Part shown: piece by piece, positions 7,319-27,301 of the stretch
Numbering within the stretch: the stretch's first letter is position 1
How the letters are laid out: each line of letters begins with the position of its first letter
Source: Candidatus Saccharimonadota bacterium
GTDB lineage: Bacteria; Patescibacteriota; Gracilibacteria; BD1-5; UBA2023
Length of the DNA stretch: 32,000 nt
Assembly (NCBI GenBank): GCA_042852035.1
Contig: BAAFHK010000001.1
Span: forward strand, 210,001 to 242,000
Reading direction: 5' to 3'
Translations under genes and position numbers: made by a program
Notes under the pieces: generated by a model
Seen by the model: only the letters and a program-made list of their open reading frames with translations
What the model was told of the DNA's origin: nothing
The model's database searches: none

Positions 7319-7678
7319 ATGTTTAAAGCCTATCTTACACTTATCACTCCACTTCAATATTTTCTTGTAATCTCTTGAGTGATAATTACAGTTGTGGCCC
7401 TTGCTCTTGCTAAAAGAGAGCGATTTAATGCACTTCATTTTCTCGTATTTCTTGCTGGAGGAGTATGACTTCTTGTGTTCTGATTCTTTCCCGGAATACT
7501 CGATCAGTTTGCTAAATTTGTCTGAGTAGCGAAATGAGCTGATGCACTTGTGTATGGAAGTGTAGTTTTTTTATTCTATTTTTCCCTGCTTTTACTCGCA
7601 AAAATTGAATCTCAACGCGAAGAACTCACTCGATTGGTTCGTGAGCTTGCTCTCCATGATATCCATGCAAAAAAATAA
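7319..7678 (+). CDS. DUF2304-family small membrane protein, 119 aa
   Basis: ATG at 7319, TAA at 7676-7678, with 5 TGA=Gly. It has three hydrophobic helices and a C-terminal ...IESQREELTRLVRELALHD tail. The 3' end overlaps the following GT2 start, the usual DUF2304-GT2 arrangement. Confidence 0.8.
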
Positions 7679-8372
7679 GTTTCTTTTTCTCATCCGTGCC
7701 TACAATGAAAGAACTCGGATAAAGGAGGTTATCGAGAGTATTTTTAATGATGGATTTCATCATATCCTTGTTGTGGATGATGGATCGACAGATGGGACAT
7801 CACAGCTCTTAAATGAAGTATTTCAGGACCAGATTTATCTGGTTAAACATCCGATTAATCGATGATGATGAGCCGCGATGGAAACATGATTTGCTTGGGT
7901 GAGAGAGAATGCCAAAAAATTCGAGATTGAATATGTTGTAACATTTGATGCTGATGGTCAGCATGATATTGCAGACATGAAGACATTTATTCATCATCTT
8001 GATAAACATTCCCATGCTGAGGTAATTTATGGCTCTCGTTTTATCATAAAAACAAATTCAAACGTGCCTTGGTACCGAAAAATGACACTCTATTGAGGCC
8101 GCATATTTACTAAGCTTCTTTCTTGAGTTAAACTGACGGATGCTCATAATGGATATCGACTCTTTCATATTTCAGTTATTGATAAGGTTCGACTCACTAT
8201 GGATGGTATGGAGTATGCGAGTGAACTTATCGAAGAGCTTGTAAAGCAGGGTTATAATATCCATGAAGTTCCCGTAAATATTCACTACGATAGCTATACT
8301 CTTGGAAAAGGACAGCGTTATGGATGAATATTGCGGATAGCGACTCGTATGATTTTTAAGAAATTTTTCTAG
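7656..8372 (+). CDS. GT2-family glycosyltransferase, 238 aa
   Basis: ATG at 7656 (or 7665), TAG at 8370-8372. Motifs: FLIRAYNE, VVDDGSTDGT, HPINR-GGG-AAMETG (three consecutive TGA, 7863-7871), TFDADGQH, AHNGYRL. Confidence 0.9.
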
Positions 8373-8377
8373 GCTCA

Positions 8378-10525
<2,148 letters not shown>

Positions 10526-14735: not shown

Positions 14736-14741
14736 AACAGA

Positions 14742-15767
14742 ATGTCTCGTATTTTAGTACATGGTATTACTATAGATATCCATACCAGTAATGACTCACT
14801 TCTAAAATCAATAGAGGAATATTATCAGATTTTTCTTGTAGAATCAACGGATACGGCACCTGATATAGTTGTAAATCTTGATCTCATTGGGTATTTTGAG
14901 AAAATCCCAAAGAAAATACTCCCTTCTGAATGAAGTATTCGAGTGGGGGATACTATTTGGATACATAAAGAAAAAAAGGAATACACATTCCAAGATAGGG
15001 AAATTATGGCGCAAATTACTTGGGATACTTCTTGAAGTATGTGCATCGAGGCCTATCTTAAGCCTCTTGCTATTCGACATTGGGTAAATATAGCCCTTCA
15101 GGGAACTACGAGAATATCAAAGTATTATAATCGCTTCTTTATTAAGACATGCATTCATGACCCACTTTTTGTTCTCTTAGAGAAAAAATTTGGGATTATT
15201 CTTTTGCATGCTACAGCAGTAACGAATGGAAAGAAGACATTTGTTTTTAGTTGATTGTGATGAAGTGGGAAGTCTACAACTGCTGCCGCATTTTCAACTC
15301 AACATGGTTACACGATTCTTGCCGATAATTACGTCCTCTTAAAATGAAAGACGCTTTATCCTTTTCCAGAACTTGCAAGAGTAACAAAAGAAACAGAAAA
15401 CTTGCTCGGAATCCGTCTCAAGAAGAAGGCGGATGGAATAAAGAGCTATCTCCAAAACGATACAAAATCAGTTCAGGAATCATATGAAGTACGAGCTATT
15501 TTTCTTTGTAGTTACGGGGATTCATTTCGAGTAGATTTAGTAAATGATGTTAATACATCCTTCGAAAATATGCTTGCGATCAATCACTATACGAAGGAGT
15601 TTCCTGAATATGGGAATTTAGCACTTTTGAGCCTACTTTCTGAGTATAATACAGGATCTGTTCGTATGGAAGAGCTCAAAAATATCTGCCAGGAAAATCA
15701 TGTTTATTTCCTTCAAAACGATAAAAATATTATCTCCCATATTCCAGAGATTGCCTCATTTCAGTAA
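14742..15767 (+). CDS. HprK-like P-loop kinase-domain protein, 341 aa
   Basis: ATG at 14742, TAA at 15765-15767. The core LLHATAVTNGKKTFVFSGLGGSGKSTTAAAFSTQHGYTILADNYVLL matches the HPr-kinase C-terminal-like fold. The Walker A glycines at 15252, 15258 and 15261 are TGA codons. Confidence 0.7.
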
Positions 15768-15769
15768 TT

Positions 15770-16753
15770 ATGTATACCTTCTGTGACATCCCAAAGGCAA
15801 TTGATGTTTCTCAATATAATGAACAAACAGAGCAAGCAATGAATCATATTCGCAAAGAAGTGCCGAGTATAGTTGCTCTATACAGTATGTGAGAACAGGA
15901 TCTTCATGGGTTATCTGATATTGATTTGCTTTGTATTATTCGTGATAGTTCCGATGAAAAGGTTGGTACTATAAAGAATATATGTAAAAACTACTCTTTA
16001 CTTGATGTTCCGTACTGTATTGATGAAGATTCTGTCCTGCTTCTTTCGTATTTTATTCAGCAGCCCTATCTAAAGCATATCTGGTGAAAGAGATATGATA
16101 TCCCCGAGATTCATAAAGAAGCAAAAGTTTTATTTGCCTGGAAACTCTGCTTTATTGGTCTTTTGCGGATTTTTTATCCGGCATTTTATTCGAAGAAAAT
16201 TTCAGTAGAACTCCTCCTCAAACAAATCTATTATATACGGTATTTGATTTGTTTTTTGGATATTGATGATCGAGAAATACTAGATTTTATGGCTGAATAT
16301 AAAGAATTTCACAGAACATGGTTCGATCATCAAGATTCAGAGCTTCTTGCTAAAAAATTTTTACCGAAGGCTATTGATATTTGTTGGAGCATCATCGAAA
16401 TGATCGATAAGAAACTGAAGCAATCTGGAGTTCTTAGTATAATTCCAAAATCTCATATACATACCTGAAGGTATCCGACGCTTTTTTCTCATCGAGATTT
16501 TCGCAGAAAGAGTGAATGATATTTTCAGAAACTACAAAAATCAGATAGATTTCTTTGTCTTCCGCATTCATTTAATATGGATAATTGGGACAAGTCAAAG
16601 ATGGATGTGCTTGATAAAATTTTATTCATATCTCCTCAATTTCTCGATTTTTGATTTGAATCAGTTTCTCTGAAATTGCTTTTAAAAATAAAAATGATAA
16701 AAGATTATTTTATGATTTTGTATTACAGATACGGTATACTATGAAAAGAATAA
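15770..16753 (+). CDS. Nucleotidyltransferase-domain (Pol-beta superfamily) protein, 327 aa
   Basis: ATG at 15770, TAA at 16751-16753. The NTase signature G-x(9)-DxD appears as VALYSMGEQDLHGLSDIDLLCIIRD. The remainder looks helical and has no family I recognise. Confidence 0.6.
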
Positions 16754-19190: not shown

Positions 19191-19865
19191 ATGATCTGTT
19201 CAATACATCAACCAAATTACATCCCATATCTCTGACTTTTCCATAAATTAGCTCAGTCAGATGTTTTTGTTTTTTATGATACAGCCCAATATACCAAAGG
19301 CGACTATCATAATCGAAATACCATTAAGTGACCAAATGGTCCTATTCTCCTCTCTCTTCCAGCCCAAGTCAAGCTCTGACAACTGATTTCTGAGGTTCAG
19401 TTTGACTCTCGAGTACTACCAAAGCACCTTAAAACTATCCAAGAATCGTATAAAAAATCAAAGTTTTTCCTAGAAGTACTTCCTATTGTAGAACAAATTT
19501 ATGCATATACGGGGAGTTCTCTCGCAGAGTTTAATATTGTCACCATAAAAAAGCTGGTAGATGTACTTTGAATCAAAACAAAACTTGTATTACTTTCAGA
19601 AATCTCTTCGAAGCTTGAGACACGAAGCACGGAGGCGCTTATTGATATCTGTAAAATTCTATGAGCTCATGTGTATATTTCTTGAGCCTGATGAAGGGGA
19701 TATCTTGAGCCAGAACTTTTTGTGTGAGCAAATATTAAATTGGAATTTCAGCACTTTGAACATCCAGTATATCCCCAGCTTTGGTGAGAATTTCTTCCCT
19801 ATATGTCAATAATTGATGTACTTTTCAATGTTGGCATTGAAGATACGAAAAAGCTTATATCGTAG
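19191..19865 (+). CDS. WbqC-family protein, 224 aa
   Basis: ATG at 19191, TAG at 19863-19865. Translation MICSIHQPNYIPYLGLFHKLAQSDVFVFYDTAQYTKGDYHNRNTIKGPNG...YISGAGGRGYLEPELF...SIIDVLFN matches the WbqC-like consensus. Confidence 0.85.
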
Positions 19866-20955
19866 GAGTTTTTTGATAGATACTTTGTATTATTCCACGC
19901 CATGAGAGGGTTGTGTTCTGGAATTTTTTTGCATTCTCTCCGAGCTGCTCGGTTAATTCTTGGTCTCAAAGAAGTTTTTCTATCGCATTAGCGATGAGTG
20001 CAGGATTTGGACTTTCTACCAGGAGACCAGTTTCACTGTTTTTAACATACTCGGAGAGTACTCCAACATCTGTTGCAATCACCGGAAGAGAAAAACTATA
20101 AGAAAGTGGTATGATTCAGGAGGCAGTTGCGTCTTTGTACGGGAGTACGACAAAGCGAGATCTTCCAAATAGTCCTGGGATTTCTTTATCGTCAATAAAA
20201 CGATTTATAAGAGTAATGTTCTTCTTTTCTATTTTTTCGAATTCATTTTTATAAGGCGATATATCCCCATCTCAAGCGATGATAATATGATAGGGGATTC
20301 ATTTCTTTTCAAGAATCTCTACAGCCTGAATCAATATATCAAGTCATTTGTATGCAACAATTCTTCAGAAAAAAAGAAAGGTGTAGGGTTCCTTTTTTTC
20401 TGAAAGGTTTTCATGTCTAAGGAAATCAAGGGATCAGTGATAGATGCTTCTTATTTTTTCTTCGGGAATACCATAATATTTTATAACTTTAGTTCGCATT
20501 TTCTCCCCATGAACTATAAGAATATCAGAAAATTTTCGTAAGAAGATATTTACTCAAATTGCTACTTTGTGAAAGATTCATTTTCTTTCCCCTGAATGAG
20601 GAAATGGATCATGTTGAATGACATATATTTTCGCACCAATAAGTCTCCCAAAAATTGGATAAAAGAAGTACCAAGGATGATTATCCATAATTTGGATAAT
20701 ATCTGGTTGAAATTTCCATATTTTCGACAGAAGCCCTATATGAGCGAAGATATTGAGGCTATCAATGATAAATGATCCAAATGTTGGATTCGTTCGAATC
20801 TTCCATAGCTCTATACCCTCATCATAGAGTTGAGTATCAGCATAACTTGGAACAATTACTCGAATATTGTGCTCACTTTTCAGAGCATTCGAAAACTGTG
20901 AGCTATAATGGAGCATTCATCCTCGTCCATTCAGATTAAAGACAACAATGTTCAT
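19855..20955 (-). CDS. GT4-family glycosyltransferase, 366 aa
   Basis: ATG at 20955, TAA at 19855-19857. Translation [21 protein letters not shown]...FLFFGRIVAYKGLDILIQA...[46 protein letters not shown]. Confidence 0.88.
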
Positions 20956-20956
20956 A

Positions 20957-21730
20957 TTAGTCTTGAAATTTTTTTCTATAGAGCTCACCTGCTACAGATA
21001 CTGGAAAAAAGAGAGCAAAAGGAATAAGCGCCATAGAGTATCGAATAAAGCCAAAAGCATCTTCAAGTCCAAATGCCGGTTCAATATAGAGTATGGCAAG
21101 GAATATTGCATAGAGCGCAAAAGTCTTTACAAGCATGGTTGAGAATTCCTTAAGGTAAAATCTTTTAATAAAAATAAAAATGAGAGATCCAAGAAAAATC
21201 AAATAGAGTAAATTATAATCTGGGTGATAGAGCGATTGCTCAAGAGGGGCCATGAGAGTCTTTGAATTCGATATATGTTCAAAGAAGCTTGAGAGGGATT
21301 TTACAGAAAAAATATCAAATCCATCGGTCATAATATTTTCTTTTGGGGAAAAGCTATGGAGGTACTTATTTACTGCCCAAGAAAGGGAAATGCCAACGAG
21401 TATTGGAAGAAATGAAATACTATTTTTTTTATTTACCGCTTTTGCAAGAAATAAGAATATGAAATCAATCACGAGAAGAGTCGAAACAAGCAGGAGAGAT
21501 TCACTTCGGATGCTTGAATCAAGAAATACGAGTATACCAAGTGGAAAAAGTATGAGAAGGTTCCTTTCTTTTTTTAGGATTACCTGATCAGATATGTAGA
21601 AGGCAAAACTAAAGAGAAAATATCCAGAGACAAGATTAAAATAAGCATCAATACTATGAATAAAGATAATTGGGAGACTTACCCAAATATATGCTGCCAT
21701 GGAAGCGATAAAGCTATCATACTTTCGCAA
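20957..21730 (-). CDS. Polytopic membrane protein, C-terminal part (~9-10 TM), start uncertain
   Basis: Track ORF with a TTG start at 21730 and TAA at 20957-20959, one nt before the GT4 ATG. The frame stays open upstream to 21910, and the first ATG is at 21700. It contains a loop ending SLYHPDYNLLYL. See the finding on the in-frame TAA at 21911-21913. Confidence 0.6.
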   Translation of the reverse strand: MRKYDSFIASMAAYIWVSLPIIFIHSIDAYFNLVSGYFLFSFAFYISDQVILKKERNLLILFPLGILVFLDSSIRSESLLLVSTLLVIDFIFLFLAKAVNKKNSISFLPILVGISLSWAVNKYLHSFSPKENIMTDGFDIFSVKSLSSFFEHISNSKTLMAPLEQSLYHPDYNLLYLIFLGSLIFIFIKRFYLKEFSTMLVKTFALYAIFLAILYIEPAFGLEDAFGFIRYSMALIPFALFFPVSVAGELYRKKFQD

Positions 21731-21910
21731 GAAAATACCAAAGAGAAGAAGTGCGGTATTCAGATAGATAAGAGAAGATATAATATTTGTATATCCGTCT
21801 GGGAGCTCATCATAAGGGAGGAGGAAATAGAGATCGATGAGTGGTGCAAATATGCTGCGCTTATATTCTCCTCAGAGGTTCTCAGGATCCTGTTTATCGA
21901 GAACGATTGA

Positions 21911-22369
21911 TTTATTTTCGAAAAAAACCTTTGTTTTTAGATCCCATCCAGTAACCGCATCCTCTCAGAGAGTTGGATGGGAGAGGTTTGTCATAAAGGA
22001 AAGGGCAATCTTGAAGAGCACCATAACAAGGAAAAAGAACACTCCAATCTTTCGCCATGTTCCATAAATCTTTATATCATGAAGTATTTTTTCTCATGTT
22101 TTCTTCCAGTCACTCAATAAGGGGGGTGTATCTCCTTTTTTTCTTCCCCAGAGCACAAAACCAACAAGAAGAAGACTGGTAATTGCTGGAATAAGGATAG
22201 TAATATGTTTAAAAAGAATCGTTGAGAAGATTGATTCCATCACAAAAAGTGAGAGTCCAATTCCAAATCACAATCAAAGAATTTCAAAGATATTGAGGTG
22301 TTTCGATTGTTTTGAGAGAATGAGGATGGATCCACCAGCGAGATAGGTGAGTACTATGGAGAATAGCAT
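21911..22369 (-). CDS. Membrane protein with 4 TM helices, 152 aa (possibly the N-terminal part of the downstream protein)
   Basis: ATG at 22369, the first ATG after an upstream TAA, and TAA at 21911-21913, with 4 TGA=Gly. Translation MLFSIVLTYLAGGSILILS...ILGLGFGIGLSLFVMESIF...ITILIPAITSLLLVGFVLW...IGVFFFLVMVLFKIALSFM. It is in the same frame as 20957..21910. Confidence 0.55.
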
Positions 22370-22387
22370 ACTGAGAGGAGTAATAGA

Positions 22388-23020
22388 TTATTTCGTATTT
22401 TTGAAGCTACTCAAGTGAAAGAGGTCGAATGGAGGAAAGAATGGATGGAAGCAACGACTTTTTCTCGTAAAGTGTTTCTCAATCTGTTTCGAGAGTCCTG
22501 ACGCTCCATGATAATGGATTCCAGTTCCAGGTCATTCTACCATACTAAAAGTTCCCTTTAAGAGAAAACGCCCAATCTTATAGATAATATTTTCAGTTGG
22601 CATCGATACGATAAGTTTTCCACCAGGTTTTAGGATACGTCGAAGTTCGCTAAGGGGTGCCTCAAGGAATTCAAAATGCTCAAGAACGTCCAAAATAATG
22701 ATAGTATCAAAAACGTTATCTTCGAAGGTTGTTTTTGTAAGATCTTCACAAAGAAAACGAGCATTATCAACAGATAAAGTTGTAACATTCTCATTAAAAT
22801 CAATGCCAGTAATATTGGTAAAACCAGCGTTTGAGAGCATCCGCACAACACGTCCATCACCACATCCCGCATCAAGAATTGCTTCATTATGATTTTTACA
22901 TTGCTTTACTGCCCAGGTAAGGCGTTTTGTGAATATCCACTGAATGAGTGGATTTTTTGATTCATATTCTGGAACAATGGATTCAAGAGTCTGTTTTTTT
23001 TCATCGAGCAGAGTGGTCAT
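22388..23020 (-). CDS. Class I SAM-dependent methyltransferase, 210 aa
   Basis: Track ORF 22532..23020 (ILDAGCGDGRVV, FDTIIILDVLEH, LKPGGKLIVS) extends through TGA 22532-22534 by 47 codons to TAA 22388-22390. Confidence 0.85.
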
Positions 23021-23032
23021 AAGTGAGTGAGA

Positions 23033-23752
23033 TTAGTGAGTATGTTTGTTGTTTTTAGGCTTCCAAAAGCGATAGCGAAAAAGAGTAAATATGGCATCGG
23101 CACCATCATGCCATCGAATTTTTTTTCATTCTGAAATCTTTCGAGGATGATAGTGAATGCCAATCTCAGCGATTTTATGTCCCATTCGAGCCGCTTTTGC
23201 AGTCACTTCAGGGCAAAATTCGAATCTTGTACATTGTAAGTCCATATCCTTCAACATTTTTGTCTCAATGAGCTTGTAGCAGGTTGGCTCATCGGTGATG
23301 TCGAGTTTATAGAGAAGATTCGAGAGAATGCTCAGAAGCTTTCCTCCAAGAAAAAAGCTTAGATGAGAGTATCCTTCATAAAAATTCATACTTCTTGATC
23401 CATAAAGAATCGAAAGATTATTATCTATGAGGTAATGAATCATTGGGATATAGTCCTCTGGGTCGTATTCAAGATCCGCATCCTGAATAATACAGTATTC
23501 TCATGTTGCCTTTTCAAGACCAGTGCGTAATGCGCTTCCTTTGCCTTTATTTTTTTCATGATAGAGAACAATATATTTCTCTTCCATTCATTTGAGAATT
23601 TCTCTGGTTTTGTCAGTTGAAAAGTCATCAACAATGATAATCTCCTTTTCGATGTTATAGGGGAGCTTTACTTTTTCTACCTTTTCAATCAGGGTAAGAA
23701 TATTTTTTTCCTCATTATAGACGGGGATGAGTATGGAGAGTTTATTGAGCAT
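23033..23752 (-). CDS. GT2-family glycosyltransferase, GtrB / polyprenol-phosphate hexose synthase-like, 239 aa
   Basis: ATG at 23752, TAA at 23033-23035. Motifs: LSILIPVYNEEKNI, IIIVDDFSTDKT, NKGKGSALRTG, IIQDADLEYDPED, and EFCPEVTAKAARMGHKIAEIGIHY. Confidence 0.9.
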
Positions 23753-24119
23753 GAGAGGCGAACGTTACATATTTACTGGCGAGAAAGTTGAGTCCCATAA
23801 CGAGAATTTTCCCGACAATAGCAATCGCGATATAATGGTACTTGAGGATATCTACTCCTATATAGAGAATAAGGGAATAAATTCAAAATGATCCTACATT
23901 AACAAGAAAAAAGGAAGTATATTGTCTCCATATATCTTTTCTCTTGCAGTCAAAGGTATATTTTTTATGAATAAAAAAAGCAATCAGAAGCACAATATTG
24001 AAACTCATGCATGCTGAAACGAGATAATAAAACCCGAAAATATCAGTAAAGGTATAGAGAAGACCAAGGTCGAGAAGGGCTGAGAGTCAGCCGATGATGA
24101 TGAATTTTATAAGCTGCAT
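23742..24119 (-). CDS. gtrA: GtrA-family membrane protein, 125 aa
   Basis: ATG at 24119, TAA at 23742-23744, overlapping the GT2 start by 11 nt. Translation MQLIKFIIIGGLSALLDLGLLYTFTDIFGFYYLVSACMSF...NFLASKYVTF has 4 TM helices and the GtrA signature. Confidence 0.88.
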
Positions 24120-25207
24120 TACTTTTGTATTACGTAGATCTTTCAGAAATCTCCAAAAGATTGAACTTTTTCTATATTCCATCGGTATGATCGATTTTCT
24201 CCGGGATTCCAACTGAGTATTTTCGAGTTCTCATCATAGATAGGATCAACGAAACCAAAAGGAGCATCTCACCCATAGGGATTATAGGTGAAGACATATT
24301 CAAGTTCTTCAGGGTCTTTGAATTTTACATAAGGATACATATGGTACTTTCCTTCACTATCATATGGGTAAGGGGCGATAAAATTTCATTTTGATGATGA
24401 CTTTACCTGACTTCGTACAAAATCAAGAAACTGGTAAAAATCTCCATTTTTTGCCAGCCTACCATTCGACATAAAATTCGGTGCAGACGCGAAATCCTTA
24501 TACATTCTCACTTGATTGAAGCTCGAGAAGAAATCAAAGAAAATCCAAAAAAATACAAGAATAAAGAATCAAAATAAAATACTCTTTTTAAAGCGACCAT
24601 GTGACTCCTTCTCGAACATTGACCAAATCAATGCAGCAGACAAAAGAAAAAGAATGATGGGGAAGAATGCCTTGTTAATATAGACTCATCCCCACATCGG
24701 TCACTCGAGAAAGTTGATGGTACGAGGAGTGAATGGAGTATAGTGGGTTGCAGACTTAAAATTCTCTATAAATCGAGAGAGTGGATCATATTGACCAATG
24801 TTTACCTGGAAGTTTTTTCATGTAAGTGCCCCGTTTACTATGAGGATTATTGGCATCTCTTTTGGGAGTTGGCTATAGTATGGAAGAGAGCTGAAGTTAA
24901 ATTTTTTTTCTCTCTTTGTTGTATCTTCTATGTTTTCAAGACCTCAAGCAAGTATCTGGTTTCCATTCAGGAACCCATATCAAATCACTCCCTTTCCACT
25001 TATGTCACCACTAAATTCTATGAATTCATTCTTATTGAGATTTCCAAGTATTATAAAGCACTGTTGTTCACAGACAAATTCACTTCCACTGGTCTTGCTG
25101 GTAAAAGATTCGAATCACTGTTTTTGTAGAACAGTGAAATCTATATCCGCATATAGTAGGGCAGGAATAACAGACAAGACGAGCGCGATAGCTATTCGTA
25201 ATTTCAT
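24119..25207 (-). CDS. Hypothetical membrane protein, 362 aa (signal/anchor, ~150-aa domain, 2 TM, ~180-aa domain)
   Basis: ATG at 25207, TAA at 24119-24121 sharing its last A with the gtrA ATG (TAATG), with about 11 TGA=Gly. N-terminus MKLRIAIALVLSVIPALLYA. Central TMs AFFPIILFLLSAALIWSMF and ILFGFFILVFFWIFFDFF. An alternative TTG start at 25291 lies 7 nt after a GGAGG (25299-25303). No family recognised. Confidence 0.7.
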
Positions 25208-25327: not shown

Positions 25328-26458
25328 TTATTGTATTCCTATGTTTCTACTAAGAAAATCTCAGAAACTCTTTATGAAAACCTCCTTTGAAAAATTCTTC
25401 GCATGCTTTTGTATCTCTGTTTTATTCCAGGTCATTCATTCGAAAGATGTTATCGCAGTGTTCAGTTCCTCAGGAGTTTGTGTTGAGAAAAAAATACCCG
25501 TCTTTCATTCCACAATACTTTCGGTTGCCCCTCATTTTCCATAGGCAATTATCGGGGTTCCGAGTGACATCGCCTCCACAGGGACAAGTCCGAAATCCTC
25601 GAGAGGAGGGAAGAGAAATGCCTTAGCCTTTGCCATAAGTTTTATTTTTTCTTCATTGGATACTCGAAATTTCCACTCGATATTTGGTTTTGATTTTCCT
25701 TTGAGTTCATGATAGAGCTTTGTATCCGTTGCTGTGCAGAGGATGAGTTTTTTTCCATTTGTGTTGAATGCATCGACAAGTAGATCGAATCGCTTATAGG
25801 GAATGCATCGACCAAGTCCGAGATAGTATGGTTCGTGATCCTGTCATTCTGACAATTCTTCTCTATTAGGTGATACTTCCACTCATGGATAGATTACCTC
25901 TGCATCTCGATTATAGTATTTTCTGATTCTCTCTGCTGTGTTCTTCGAGTTTGCGATAAAATAGTCTACTCTCTTGCTCGCTCTATAGTCAACCCTCTTC
26001 ATCCAGTTTCTTACAAGTGGAAAAATAAATTTCACCAGAGGGTTCAGATATCCGAATTCCATCATTTCCTCATATTCCTTGGCGTGACTCCAGTAATAAC
26101 GAGTTGGAGTATGGCAGTAGCAAATATGTTTCACTCAGGCTTTCCTTTTTGAGTATCAGGCATTTTTCGATTCTGCTGAGCTCGAAGAGATGATGACATC
26201 ATATTCCGAAAGGTCGAAACTCCGAAATGCCCATGGCCTCAGAAGTCCAGCGAGTTTGTGTTTACGGTTAAAAAATGGAATATGCTGTATCCAACTCGTA
26301 TAAACCTTCCTTCCTTCCAGCATTGGATGGTTCATGTAGCAGACACTCGTAAATATATCTGCCTCAGGAAACATTTCGAGGAGATGTGATATGACGAGCT
26401 CTGCTCATCAGAAATCGATGAGCCAATCAGCAATGATGGCTATTTTTTTCCCTTTCAT
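25328..26458 (-). CDS. GT4-family glycosyltransferase, 376 aa
   Basis: ATG at 26458, TAA at 25328-25330. Translation MKGKKIAIIADWLIDFGGAELV...HICYCHTPTRYYW...FLFPPLEDFGLVPVEAMSLGTPIIAYGKGGATESIVEGKTGIFF. Confidence 0.88.
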
Positions 26459-26470
26459 TGTTTTTAGATA

Positions 26471-27301
26471 TTACTTCCAGAGCTTATTCATGTCCCCAAT
26501 AAATGCATTATAAGATGATAAGAATGCTTTATTGAGGGATGGATTTTTTAAGTATTTCCCTACGGTTGCTGATCACCATGATATCTGTGATTTTCTTGAG
26601 TCAAAAAGAATCTTGCAGTCTGCATTCTTTTTAATTTCATTAAGGAATCATGCTAAATTATAGTATGTAAAATTCGGGTATTTTGAACATTGGAACACTA
26701 TATGAGTTGGGTTCTTTATTTGTGAATCTGTTGCAAAATCCGTGTAAGTATATATTCCTGCAATTTCTTTAGAACTTACCATATAAAAAATATTGTCTTT
26801 TATAAAAATATAATTCAATTGAAATGATGAATATTCACCATTTCATCAGCCACTAATCGTTACAATTCAGTTTTTTAATCACTTTGCTGCAACAACAAAT
26901 CTCGGAATTCATAGATAATCTCCTCTTGCATAGAATGGGTCTAGTGAATTCCAATATTTTTCAATTAATAACGCTGCTTGAGTTGTATTTTTTTTCTTCA
27001 TGTATTCTGAGAATTTCAGAAATCTTTCTTTGCTCCAATCTTTACTTTTGGATGCTAATTGGATTGAATTGTAAGAATCCATTGTTCATTGATTGAAATC
27101 AGAAATATCTTTTCGAATATCTTCCTCAAGATTTGCTATGTTATAATATTGAATATATCATGCTCAATTGGCCTGATATTGTGTTCATACCTTTTTTTGA
27201 ATTCATAAAATTTCTCAAGATATAGTTTCTTTTGCAGAAACATTATTGAATGCTACCCCGAATCATGCGATAAATGTCACTAACGCAAAGATATATTTCA
27301 T
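26471..27301 (-). CDS. Hypothetical secreted protein with N-terminal signal peptide, 276 aa
   Basis: ATG at 27301, TAA at 26471-26473, 12 nt before the GT4 ATG, with 14 in-frame TGA. Signal-like N-terminus MKYIFALVTFIAGFGVAFNNVSA. No minus-strand ORF appears here in the track. I checked the revcomp line by line and found no TAA or TAG in 276 codons of very AT-rich DNA. Confidence 0.7.

Follow-up and report, generated by a model that had tools for sequence, protein, structure and literature searches.

A probable lipid-linked-sugar glycosylation locus with a candidate divergent GT-C enzyme and a conserved partner protein in a code-25 Patescibacteria genome

Three-component schemes have been described for the transfer of lipid-linked sugars outside the cell, and some of the glycosyltransferases (GTs) of the GT-C type carry carbohydrate-binding modules (CBMs) in cis (PMC11127046). 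In such systems a GT2 family enzyme can depend on a small membrane protein: GacJ binds and stimulates the GT2 GacI, and Rv3632 does likewise for PpgS (bioRxiv 10.1101/180810). For GtrA proteins, direct demonstration of flippase activity is lacking (PMC11127046). Here we describe a minus-strand operon in a 32,000-nucleotide stretch of DNA ("the window") from an assembly named Candidatus Saccharimonadota bacterium (GCA_042852035.1; contig BAAFHK010000001.1, positions 210,001 to 242,000). The operon encodes a GtrA-family protein, a GT2, a methyltransferase, and two membrane proteins that we call Mem470 and Mem362. We consider it likely that the locus encodes a system for glycosylation outside the cytoplasm that is fed by a lipid-linked sugar, with Mem470 as its GT-C enzyme and Mem362 as the partner of that enzyme.

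We found that the whole window (1-32000) is written in genetic code 25, in which TGA encodes glycine, as in Gracilibacteria and Absconditabacteria (SR1). We assign this code because coverage by open reading frames (ORFs) of at least 100 amino acids (aa) rises from 14.5 kb to 68 kb once TGA is a sense codon, with a far smaller gain when TAG or TAA is reassigned instead, and because the conserved Gly of the GT4 motifs FFxRI, AxDGD, and GKxGATESIVExKTG is encoded by in-frame TGA. An ORF list made with translation table 11 fragmented every gene into short ORFs and was dropped in favor of code 25. The first-pass annotation had described a protein with 13 to 14 transmembrane (TM) segments in two pieces. 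Under code 25 this is one uninterrupted ORF of 470 codons, Mem470 (20957-22369, minus strand), with in-frame TGA at codons 32, 34, 92, 135, and 166 and with neither TAA nor TAG ahead of codon 471; the split was a stop-codon artifact. Many public homologs of Mem470 and Mem362 have Trp at the TGA/Gly positions of the window. Apparently code 4 was used to translate these entries, and as a result the conserved glycines become blurred when the sequences are aligned.

The operon begins, among the genes of interest here, with Mem362 (362 aa; 24119-25207, minus strand, as are all genes of the run). It is followed by a four-helix membrane protein of the GtrA family (125 aa; 23742-24119; PF04138, 2.6e-22), a soluble GT2 of the polyprenyl-phosphate sugar synthase type with a DAD motif (239 aa; 23033-23752; PF00535, 1.7e-32), a cytoplasmic class I methyltransferase dependent on S-adenosylmethionine (SAM) (210 aa; 22388-23020; PF08241, 5.4e-20), and Mem470. 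A GT4 glycosyltransferase (366 aa; 19855-20955; PF00534, 6.6e-28) is the last gene. The gene order from Mem362 to this GT4 had been read correctly before, and both junctions noted then are exact: TAATG contains the Mem362 stop and the GtrA start, and the GT2 ATG lies 11 nucleotides (nt) inside the 3' end of gtrA, so that the two genes overlap. The ATG of the last GT4 lies 1 nt past the Mem470 stop, and the remaining gaps in the run are 1 to 18 nt. Chance is a wholly inadequate explanation for this arrangement, given that related loci have the same set of genes (see below).

We followed the relationships of Mem470 through successively wider families. A word-indexed search returned only 15 close relatives, none with a precomputed Pfam domain. 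An alignment of this close family revealed a strongly conserved motif, PT[FL]xEDAVxGWDLKTKVF, together with many invariant polar residues. A profile search of 1.84 billion representatives returned 241 relatives, including a distant tier of proteins of the same length (460 to 480 aa) with E values of 1e-23 to 1e-7. Several distant members are named "glycosyltransferase family 39 protein" by NCBI, and some carry PF02366. We found that 24 of 55 superfamily members match PMT_2 (best E value, 4.5e-11) and that the two members tested, P0075 and P0080, exceed its gathering score, with the domain at about residues 180 to 335. When the Mem470 close family was aligned with the distant tier by hhalign, the match extended over 447 columns (probability, 100%; E = 1.3e-43). 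D137 and R443 are invariant in all 55 superfamily sequences, and in the Mem470 family D137 is part of an adjacent acidic pair, E136-D137.

The AlphaFold2 (AF2) model of Mem470 (pLDDT, 74; pTM, 0.82) is all helical with about 13 membrane-length helices, and a hydropathy scan agrees. The predicted topology falls within the 7 to 13 TM segments of the polytopic GT-C fold. When the model was compared with the PDB by Foldseek, ranks 1 to 8 were all GT-C structures (STT3, AglB, PglB, and ALG9, with entries that include 6ezn_F, 3waj, 5ogl_A, and 9s6s_A) at probabilities of 0.93 to 1.0. From rank 9 on, probabilities were below 0.1, except for AftA at rank 20. The predicted inside loops contain 17 Lys plus Arg in 58 residues, and the predicted outside loops contain 11 Lys plus Arg and 20 Asp plus Glu in 134 residues. 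This charge bias places the 65-residue loop 131-195, which is net negative and lies on the face opposite the K/R-rich loops, outside the cell. The conserved EDAV-containing motif and D137 are both part of this loop. Most of the invariant polar residues are likewise predicted to be outside: D137, D143, K145, K147, D158, R171, D179, S285, R288, E290, Q378, H382, D384, Y385, R443, and Y444. Because of the full-length homology to proteins that pass the PMT_2 threshold, the top fold matches to GT-C enzymes only, and the invariant residues on the predicted outer face, we conclude that Mem470 is probably a divergent GT39/PMT_2-like GT-C, short and without a soluble domain. Three extra N-terminal helices precede its equivalent of GT-C TM1, and they are conserved throughout the superfamily. 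In PDB profile searches with the close family, the superfamily, and the distant tier, only SemiSWEET, Sec61γ, and FliQ appeared, at E > 0.02; we treated these as chance noise.

The second membrane protein, Mem362, matches no Pfam or NCBIfam family, and its own family has 34 members, all from code-25 lineages (Absconditabacterales, SR1, or Gracilibacteria) and with no name beyond hypothetical protein. It had been taken for a polytopic protein; we found an N-terminal signal or anchor helix and a single TM hairpin. In the AF2 model (pLDDT, 83; about 90 for the N-terminal domain), a signal peptide is followed by a β-sandwich (about residues 28 to 138) with two invariant cysteines, the segment PRTINFLEGP, the TM hairpin (177-197 and 204-241), and an α/β domain (257-360) that is predicted to be a second extracytoplasmic domain. 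By Foldseek the β-sandwich matched CBM6, CBM29, CBM16, CBM61, and a porphyran-binding CBM (E = 3.5e-5 to 1e-3; probability, 1.0; TMt of about 0.5), and toxin receptor-binding domains were matched as well. Sequence identity to the matched CBMs is 6 to 16%. We ruled out Mem362 itself as a GT-C by its topology (one hairpin, not polytopic) and its CBM-like fold. The proposal that the unassigned membrane proteins supply the third component of the system, a divergent GT-C, is therefore supported for Mem470 and not for Mem362.

We examined nine related genome loci and two contig look-ups, all translated with code 25 (L001 is the same contig as L006). Mem470 homologs in these loci carry 12 to 29 in-frame TGA codons, with one exception, L004, that has 2. 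In 9/9 distinct loci with upstream sequence, we found that the Mem470 homolog is immediately preceded on its own strand by a homolog of Mem362. Of the code-25 loci with sufficient sequence, 8/8 have a GtrA homolog no more than 1.4 kb downstream of the GT-C gene, and in six loci a GT2 of about 385 aa follows GtrA. The co-localization of GT-C, GtrA, and GT2 that is expected of a three-component system is therefore conserved, and in relatives the gtrA-GT2 pair remains linked to its polytopic neighbor. The window order (partner, gtrA, GT2, methyltransferase, GT-C) is a permuted version of the module in relatives. The exceptional locus, L004 (JADGCS010000038.1, labeled Deltaproteobacteria), has a Mem470 relative with 37% identity and a 650-codon open frame that matches the Mem362 profile; there is no GtrA in the vicinity. 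The contig may be mis-binned or come from a lineage that uses another code.

The methyltransferase also has counterparts in relatives. It had been regarded as an outsider to the module, which no longer holds: in most related loci a class I SAM methyltransferase, a B12-binding radical-SAM enzyme, or both lie between the GT-C gene and gtrA, and one or the other recurs beside the GT-C. In relatives, some methyltransferase genes adjoin the GT-C gene and others a GT4 gene; for both kinds the methyltransferase of the operon is the best match in the window, with scores too weak to assign it to either as an ortholog. Genes for the B12-binding radical-SAM enzyme (PF04055 plus PF02310) lie just downstream of the Mem470 homolog in L002 (11819-13210), L006 (12626-14026), L008 (10130-11566), and L011 (4097-5485). 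In L011 the gene separates the GT-C gene from gtrA; in L002 and L006 it comes after GtrA. This enzyme may be a class B radical-SAM methylase that acts on the sugar.

The association of Mem470 and Mem362 extends beyond code-25 lineages. The loci of the distant tier use the standard code; two are labeled Deltaproteobacteria, one is labeled Omnitrophica, and the others are unlabeled metagenome contigs. We found that a partner protein without a Pfam match adjoins the GT39-like gene in 7/7 distant loci sampled, with 10 pairs in total. These partners are usually about 370 aa long, and the stop codon of one gene often overlaps the start codon of the next. The GT39-like gene precedes its partner in L019, and truncated partners occur in L016 (216 aa) and Omnitrophica (136 to 144 aa). 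Tandem double pairs are present in L015 (3229-8395, labeled Deltaproteobacteria), L017 (2884-7962), and L018 (79-5443); whole pairs of partner and GT39-like enzyme, not single genes, appear to duplicate. A profile built from three partners detected the other distant partners at 1e-35 to 1e-67, the short Omnitrophica form weakly (0.0024), and 11 members of the Mem362 family. By hhalign the Mem362 family matched nine distant partners (probability, 94.6%; E = 7e-8) over the motif before the TM segments, the hairpin, and the C-terminal domain, with a shared DF[YF]xF[LI]xF[IV]KxxVPxG. The N-terminal β-sandwich sequence is unconserved between the code-25 and the Deltaproteobacteria-type partners. 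Because a partner adjoins the enzyme in every distant locus sampled and the partners are homologous, we conclude that the partner and the short GT39-like enzyme are a cassette conserved across phyla, which here are code-25 Patescibacteria, Deltaproteobacteria-type lineages, and Omnitrophica.

The remaining two components are GtrA and the GT2. GtrA matches PF04138 over its full length (79.7 bits; cutoff, 26.1), and the GT2 matches, among other NCBIfam models, AglJ (2.7e-26), ArnC, PpgS (3.3e-12), and a haloarchaeal Dol-P-hexose transferase. These and the PF00535 match bear out the earlier assignment of a GtrA module with a polyprenyl-phosphate-type GT2. Judged by homology, the two proteins would be the small GtrA-family membrane protein and the polyprenyl-phosphate sugar synthase of a three-component system. 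The best solved relative of the GT2 is the dolichol-phosphate mannose synthase of Pyrococcus furiosus (PfDPMS): residues 4 to 206 align with residues 24 to 226 of 5mlz at 3e-16, followed by, among others, GtrB (5ekp) and ArnC (9hwj). The only PDB match of GtrA (residues 3 to 121) is the C-terminal TM domain of the same enzyme (5mlz residues 256 to 373; E = 2.8e-4). Because the two proteins match consecutive parts of one chain, the soluble GT2 and the overlapping gtrA look like two halves of a split DPMS-type synthase. This reading fits the GacJ/GacI and Rv3632/PpgS cases, in which a small membrane protein stimulates a GT2.

If the synthase is split in this way, GtrA might be the subunit that anchors or activates it and not a flippase, with flipping carried out by another protein or unassisted. 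The window GT2 has no TM segment, its gene overlaps gtrA by 11 nt, and both the consecutive 5mlz matches (24-226 and 256-373) and the stimulation of GT2 partners by GacJ and Rv3632 are in keeping with this role, as is the missing direct demonstration of GtrA flippase activity noted above (PMC11127046). However, the relatives' GT2 of about 385 aa has its own C-terminal hydrophobic region and yet a separate GtrA is kept, although an anchor would be unneeded; the anchor and flippase roles are also compatible. We regard a role as anchor in place of flippase as possible, on the doubtful side. In the scheme below we keep GtrA as the candidate flippase.

We propose a scheme of five steps. First, the GT2, together with GtrA, would load a sugar from a nucleotide sugar onto polyprenyl phosphate at the cytoplasmic face. 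Second, ahead of export, the SAM methyltransferase may alter either the sugar itself or the lipid-linked donor. Third, the lipid-linked sugar would be flipped outward, a step that is hypothetical in model systems too and is usually attributed to GtrA. Fourth, Mem470 would transfer the sugar to an extracellular acceptor by means of the loop that contains Asp137 and the invariant polar residues that form a ring on its outer face. Fifth, Mem362 would sit in the membrane beside Mem470 and supply ectodomains in trans that bind carbohydrate or position the acceptor, as its adjacency and fold suggest. We infer a polyprenyl-phosphate-linked donor for Mem470 because its operon also encodes a DPMS-like GT2 and GtrA and because GtrA is present in 8/8 related loci. 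The acceptor is likely a cell-wall glycopolymer built by the GT4/WecG-TagA genes around the operon, because the operon lies in an island of about 22 kb that also includes PIG-L and WbqC genes.

Several results weigh against this scheme. Mem470 has no Pfam or NCBIfam match at E ≤ 1 and no sequence match in the PDB; it fails the gathering threshold of PMT_2 (PF13231) directly, and its link to PMT_2/GT39 is only transitive. PDB profile searches with the Mem470 close family, the superfamily, and the distant tier found no solved GT-C. The Foldseek E values are weak (0.03 to 0.6, none ≤1e-3), and the TM-scores are 0.38 to 0.47 (TMq, 0.32 to 0.47). The most conserved part of the acidic loop (131-171) is modeled with pLDDT below 50, and this loop follows the fourth helix, whereas in canonical GT-Cs it follows the first. 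GtrA and GT2 are not near the pair in the two distant loci labeled Deltaproteobacteria or in L018. Finally, a Rosetta-stone search of the long superfamily members found no fusion of partner and GT-C. Among the candidates, P0159 proved to be a GT39-GT39 tandem and P0180 to contain cytochrome c and phosphoesterase domains, and the extensions of the other long members matched the partner profiles with hhalign probabilities below 10%.

Mem362 could also be an unrelated surface protein that is merely cotranscribed, such as an acceptor substrate, a lectin-like adhesin, or a wall-anchoring factor, and not a transferase subunit. The missing fusion and the β-sandwich sequence that is not kept between code-25 and Deltaproteobacteria-type partners would both be expected in that case. 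However, we found adjacency in 9/9 close and 7/7 distant loci from at least three named phyla, and the tandem pairs in L015, L017, and L018 and the frequent stop/start overlap are typical of stoichiometric partners. In addition, the part conserved across phyla is the hairpin and juxtamembrane domain, the very region through which a membrane enzyme would be contacted. We therefore think an unrelated surface protein unlikely. A stronger form of the partner hypothesis is that Mem470-type enzymes and Mem362-type partners are an obligate two-subunit GT-C in which a separately encoded ectodomain recognizes the acceptor, and that the cassette is ancient, has spread across unrelated phyla, and diversifies by tandem duplication of pairs, each with its own acceptor specificity. 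We put this forward tentatively, as an idea with somewhat less than even chances.

Another reading is that Mem470 is a PMT-like protein O-glycosyltransferase whose acceptors are Ser/Thr residues of pilins or S-layer-type proteins, or possibly of Mem362 or the 276-aa secreted protein encoded at the start of the run. The nearest named families are PMT_2 and PMT (GT39), the founding members of which O-mannosylate proteins. Loop 1 of PMTs has an acidic Asp-Glu pair, to which E136-D137 of Mem470 can be compared. In L001 and L002, a protein with a faint SLH domain is encoded about 5 kb upstream, and Vampirococcus-type relatives have elaborate surface proteins (PMC8080830). PMT_2, however, also includes modifiers of lipids and glycans such as ArnT, so the family name leaves the acceptor unfixed; the partner ectodomain resembles CBMs, and GT4, WecG/TagA, PIG-L, and WbqC genes like those around the operon are typical of glycopolymer synthesis. 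For these reasons we judge protein O-glycosylation improbable and favor the wall glycopolymer as the acceptor. That Mem470 is no glycosyltransferase at all and instead a Wzy-type polymerase, an O-antigen-ligase-like enzyme, or a transporter would be in line with its missing direct Pfam, NCBIfam, and PDB sequence matches and with Foldseek E values that all exceed 0.01, but we consider this very improbable, since Mem470 matches no Wzy_C or transporter family at E ≤ 1, transporters appear in Foldseek only at probabilities below 0.1, and the homology to proteins above the PMT_2 gathering threshold is full length.

The genes around the operon are largely devoted to glycans. The island contains at least seven genes with GT4-type domains, a GalE-GT4 fusion, WecG/TagA, PIG-L, WbqC, and three methyltransferases. 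Directly upstream of Mem362 in the same run is a 376-aa GT4 (25328-26458; PF00534, 7.7e-21; PF13439, 5e-16). The first gene of the minus-strand run (26471-27301) encodes the 276-aa secreted protein, which has an N-terminal hydrophobic helix, belongs to no family that we recognized, and is without a Pfam match or a homolog in any related locus; this gene has 14 in-frame TGA codons. On the plus strand, a small DUF2304 membrane protein (7319-7678; PF10066, 1.7e-22) overlaps the next gene, a soluble GT2 (7656-8372; PF00535, 1.2e-23). This pair (7319-8372) has the GacJ/GacI arrangement and is the second lipid-sugar synthase pair in the window. We saw only one GT-C candidate in the window; a single transferase may be supplied with two donors, or another GT-C may be encoded elsewhere. 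Next is a 715-aa fusion of a GalE-like NAD-dependent sugar epimerase and a complete GT4 (8360-10522, plus strand; PF01370, 3.9e-49). Two proteins of about 340 aa without a Pfam match are encoded inside the island on the plus strand, one (14736-15767) with a P-loop-like GLGGSGKST motif and the other at 15725-16753. In relatives, genes for a GT9 heptosyltransferase-like protein and heptose-type activation (SIS isomerase, PfkB kinase, cytidylyl/nucleotidyl transferase, HAD phosphatase, and epimerase) lie downstream of the module, at about 13 to 19 kb in L001/L002 and at 13634-16484 in L010. Such genes are surprising for a lineage without a lipopolysaccharide (LPS) outer membrane.

Gracilibacteria and Absconditabacteria live as episymbionts and predators and have hardly or never been cultured, and their surface is thought to mediate attachment to prey. 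To our knowledge, almost none of their envelope genes is annotated. The analysis assigns a probable function class to two lineage-wide families of hypothetical proteins. It also suggests that standard profile libraries have missed a whole GT-C subfamily, partly because public translations often read TGA as Trp or stop. If the partner is a true subunit, it would provide a simple two-gene model for acceptor recognition by GT-Cs and a handle for predicting acceptor specificity from sequence. In the literature library searched, no paper mentions both GT-C enzymes and the Candidate Phyla Radiation, and neither the profile libraries tested nor the literature searches revealed a conserved accessory protein for a bacterial GT-C.

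Compared with described systems, the locus is closest in composition to the Gtr systems of Shigella and Salmonella phages, which combine a polyprenyl-phosphate GT2, GtrA (PF04138), and a polytopic outer GT-C in one transcript (PMC11127046). GtrB-type enzymes have their own TM helices, whereas the window GT2 is soluble and only 239 aa long. The gene order is permuted, the candidate GT-C is GT39/PMT_2-like and only 470 aa long, and a CBM-like partner and a methyltransferase are added. The hosts differ as well: an enterobacterium with O-antigen LPS there and a code-25 Patescibacteria lineage here. In the P. furiosus DPMS (5MLZ), both domains are covered by the window GT2 and GtrA together; here these are two separate genes of low sequence identity to it, with the TM part encoded first. 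The GacI/GacJ/GacL and PpgS/Rv3632/Rv3779 systems likewise pair a GT2 lipid-sugar synthase with an activating small membrane protein, and a GT-C decorates the wall polysaccharide (bioRxiv 10.1101/180810); the PpgS match of the window GT2 fits this likeness. However, GacJ is a DUF2304 protein and Rv3632 is called a GacJ homolog (bioRxiv 10.1101/180810), whereas the small protein of the operon is of the GtrA family, and neither system has a separately encoded CBM-like partner.

The CsbB/GtcA/YfhO systems of teichoic acid glycosylation in Bacillus and Listeria share the three-component logic, a GtrA-family member (GtcA), and a single-membrane envelope (PMC7389260). They differ in the transferase, since neither Mem470 nor its relatives match a YfhO family model and they fall in the PMT_2/GT39 branch instead. 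EmbA/B/C, AftD, and the GT136 enzyme ORF12 combine a GT-C core with CBM-type outer domains that are believed to recognize the acceptor glycan by binding it (PMC11127046; PMC3044687). There the CBM belongs to the same polypeptide, whereas here the CBM-like domain is on the separate, hairpin-anchored Mem362. The type of system is known; what appears to be new is a GT-C subfamily invisible to Pfam and NCBIfam, an undescribed and conserved family of partner proteins, and a split synthase that may be matched by a split transferase.

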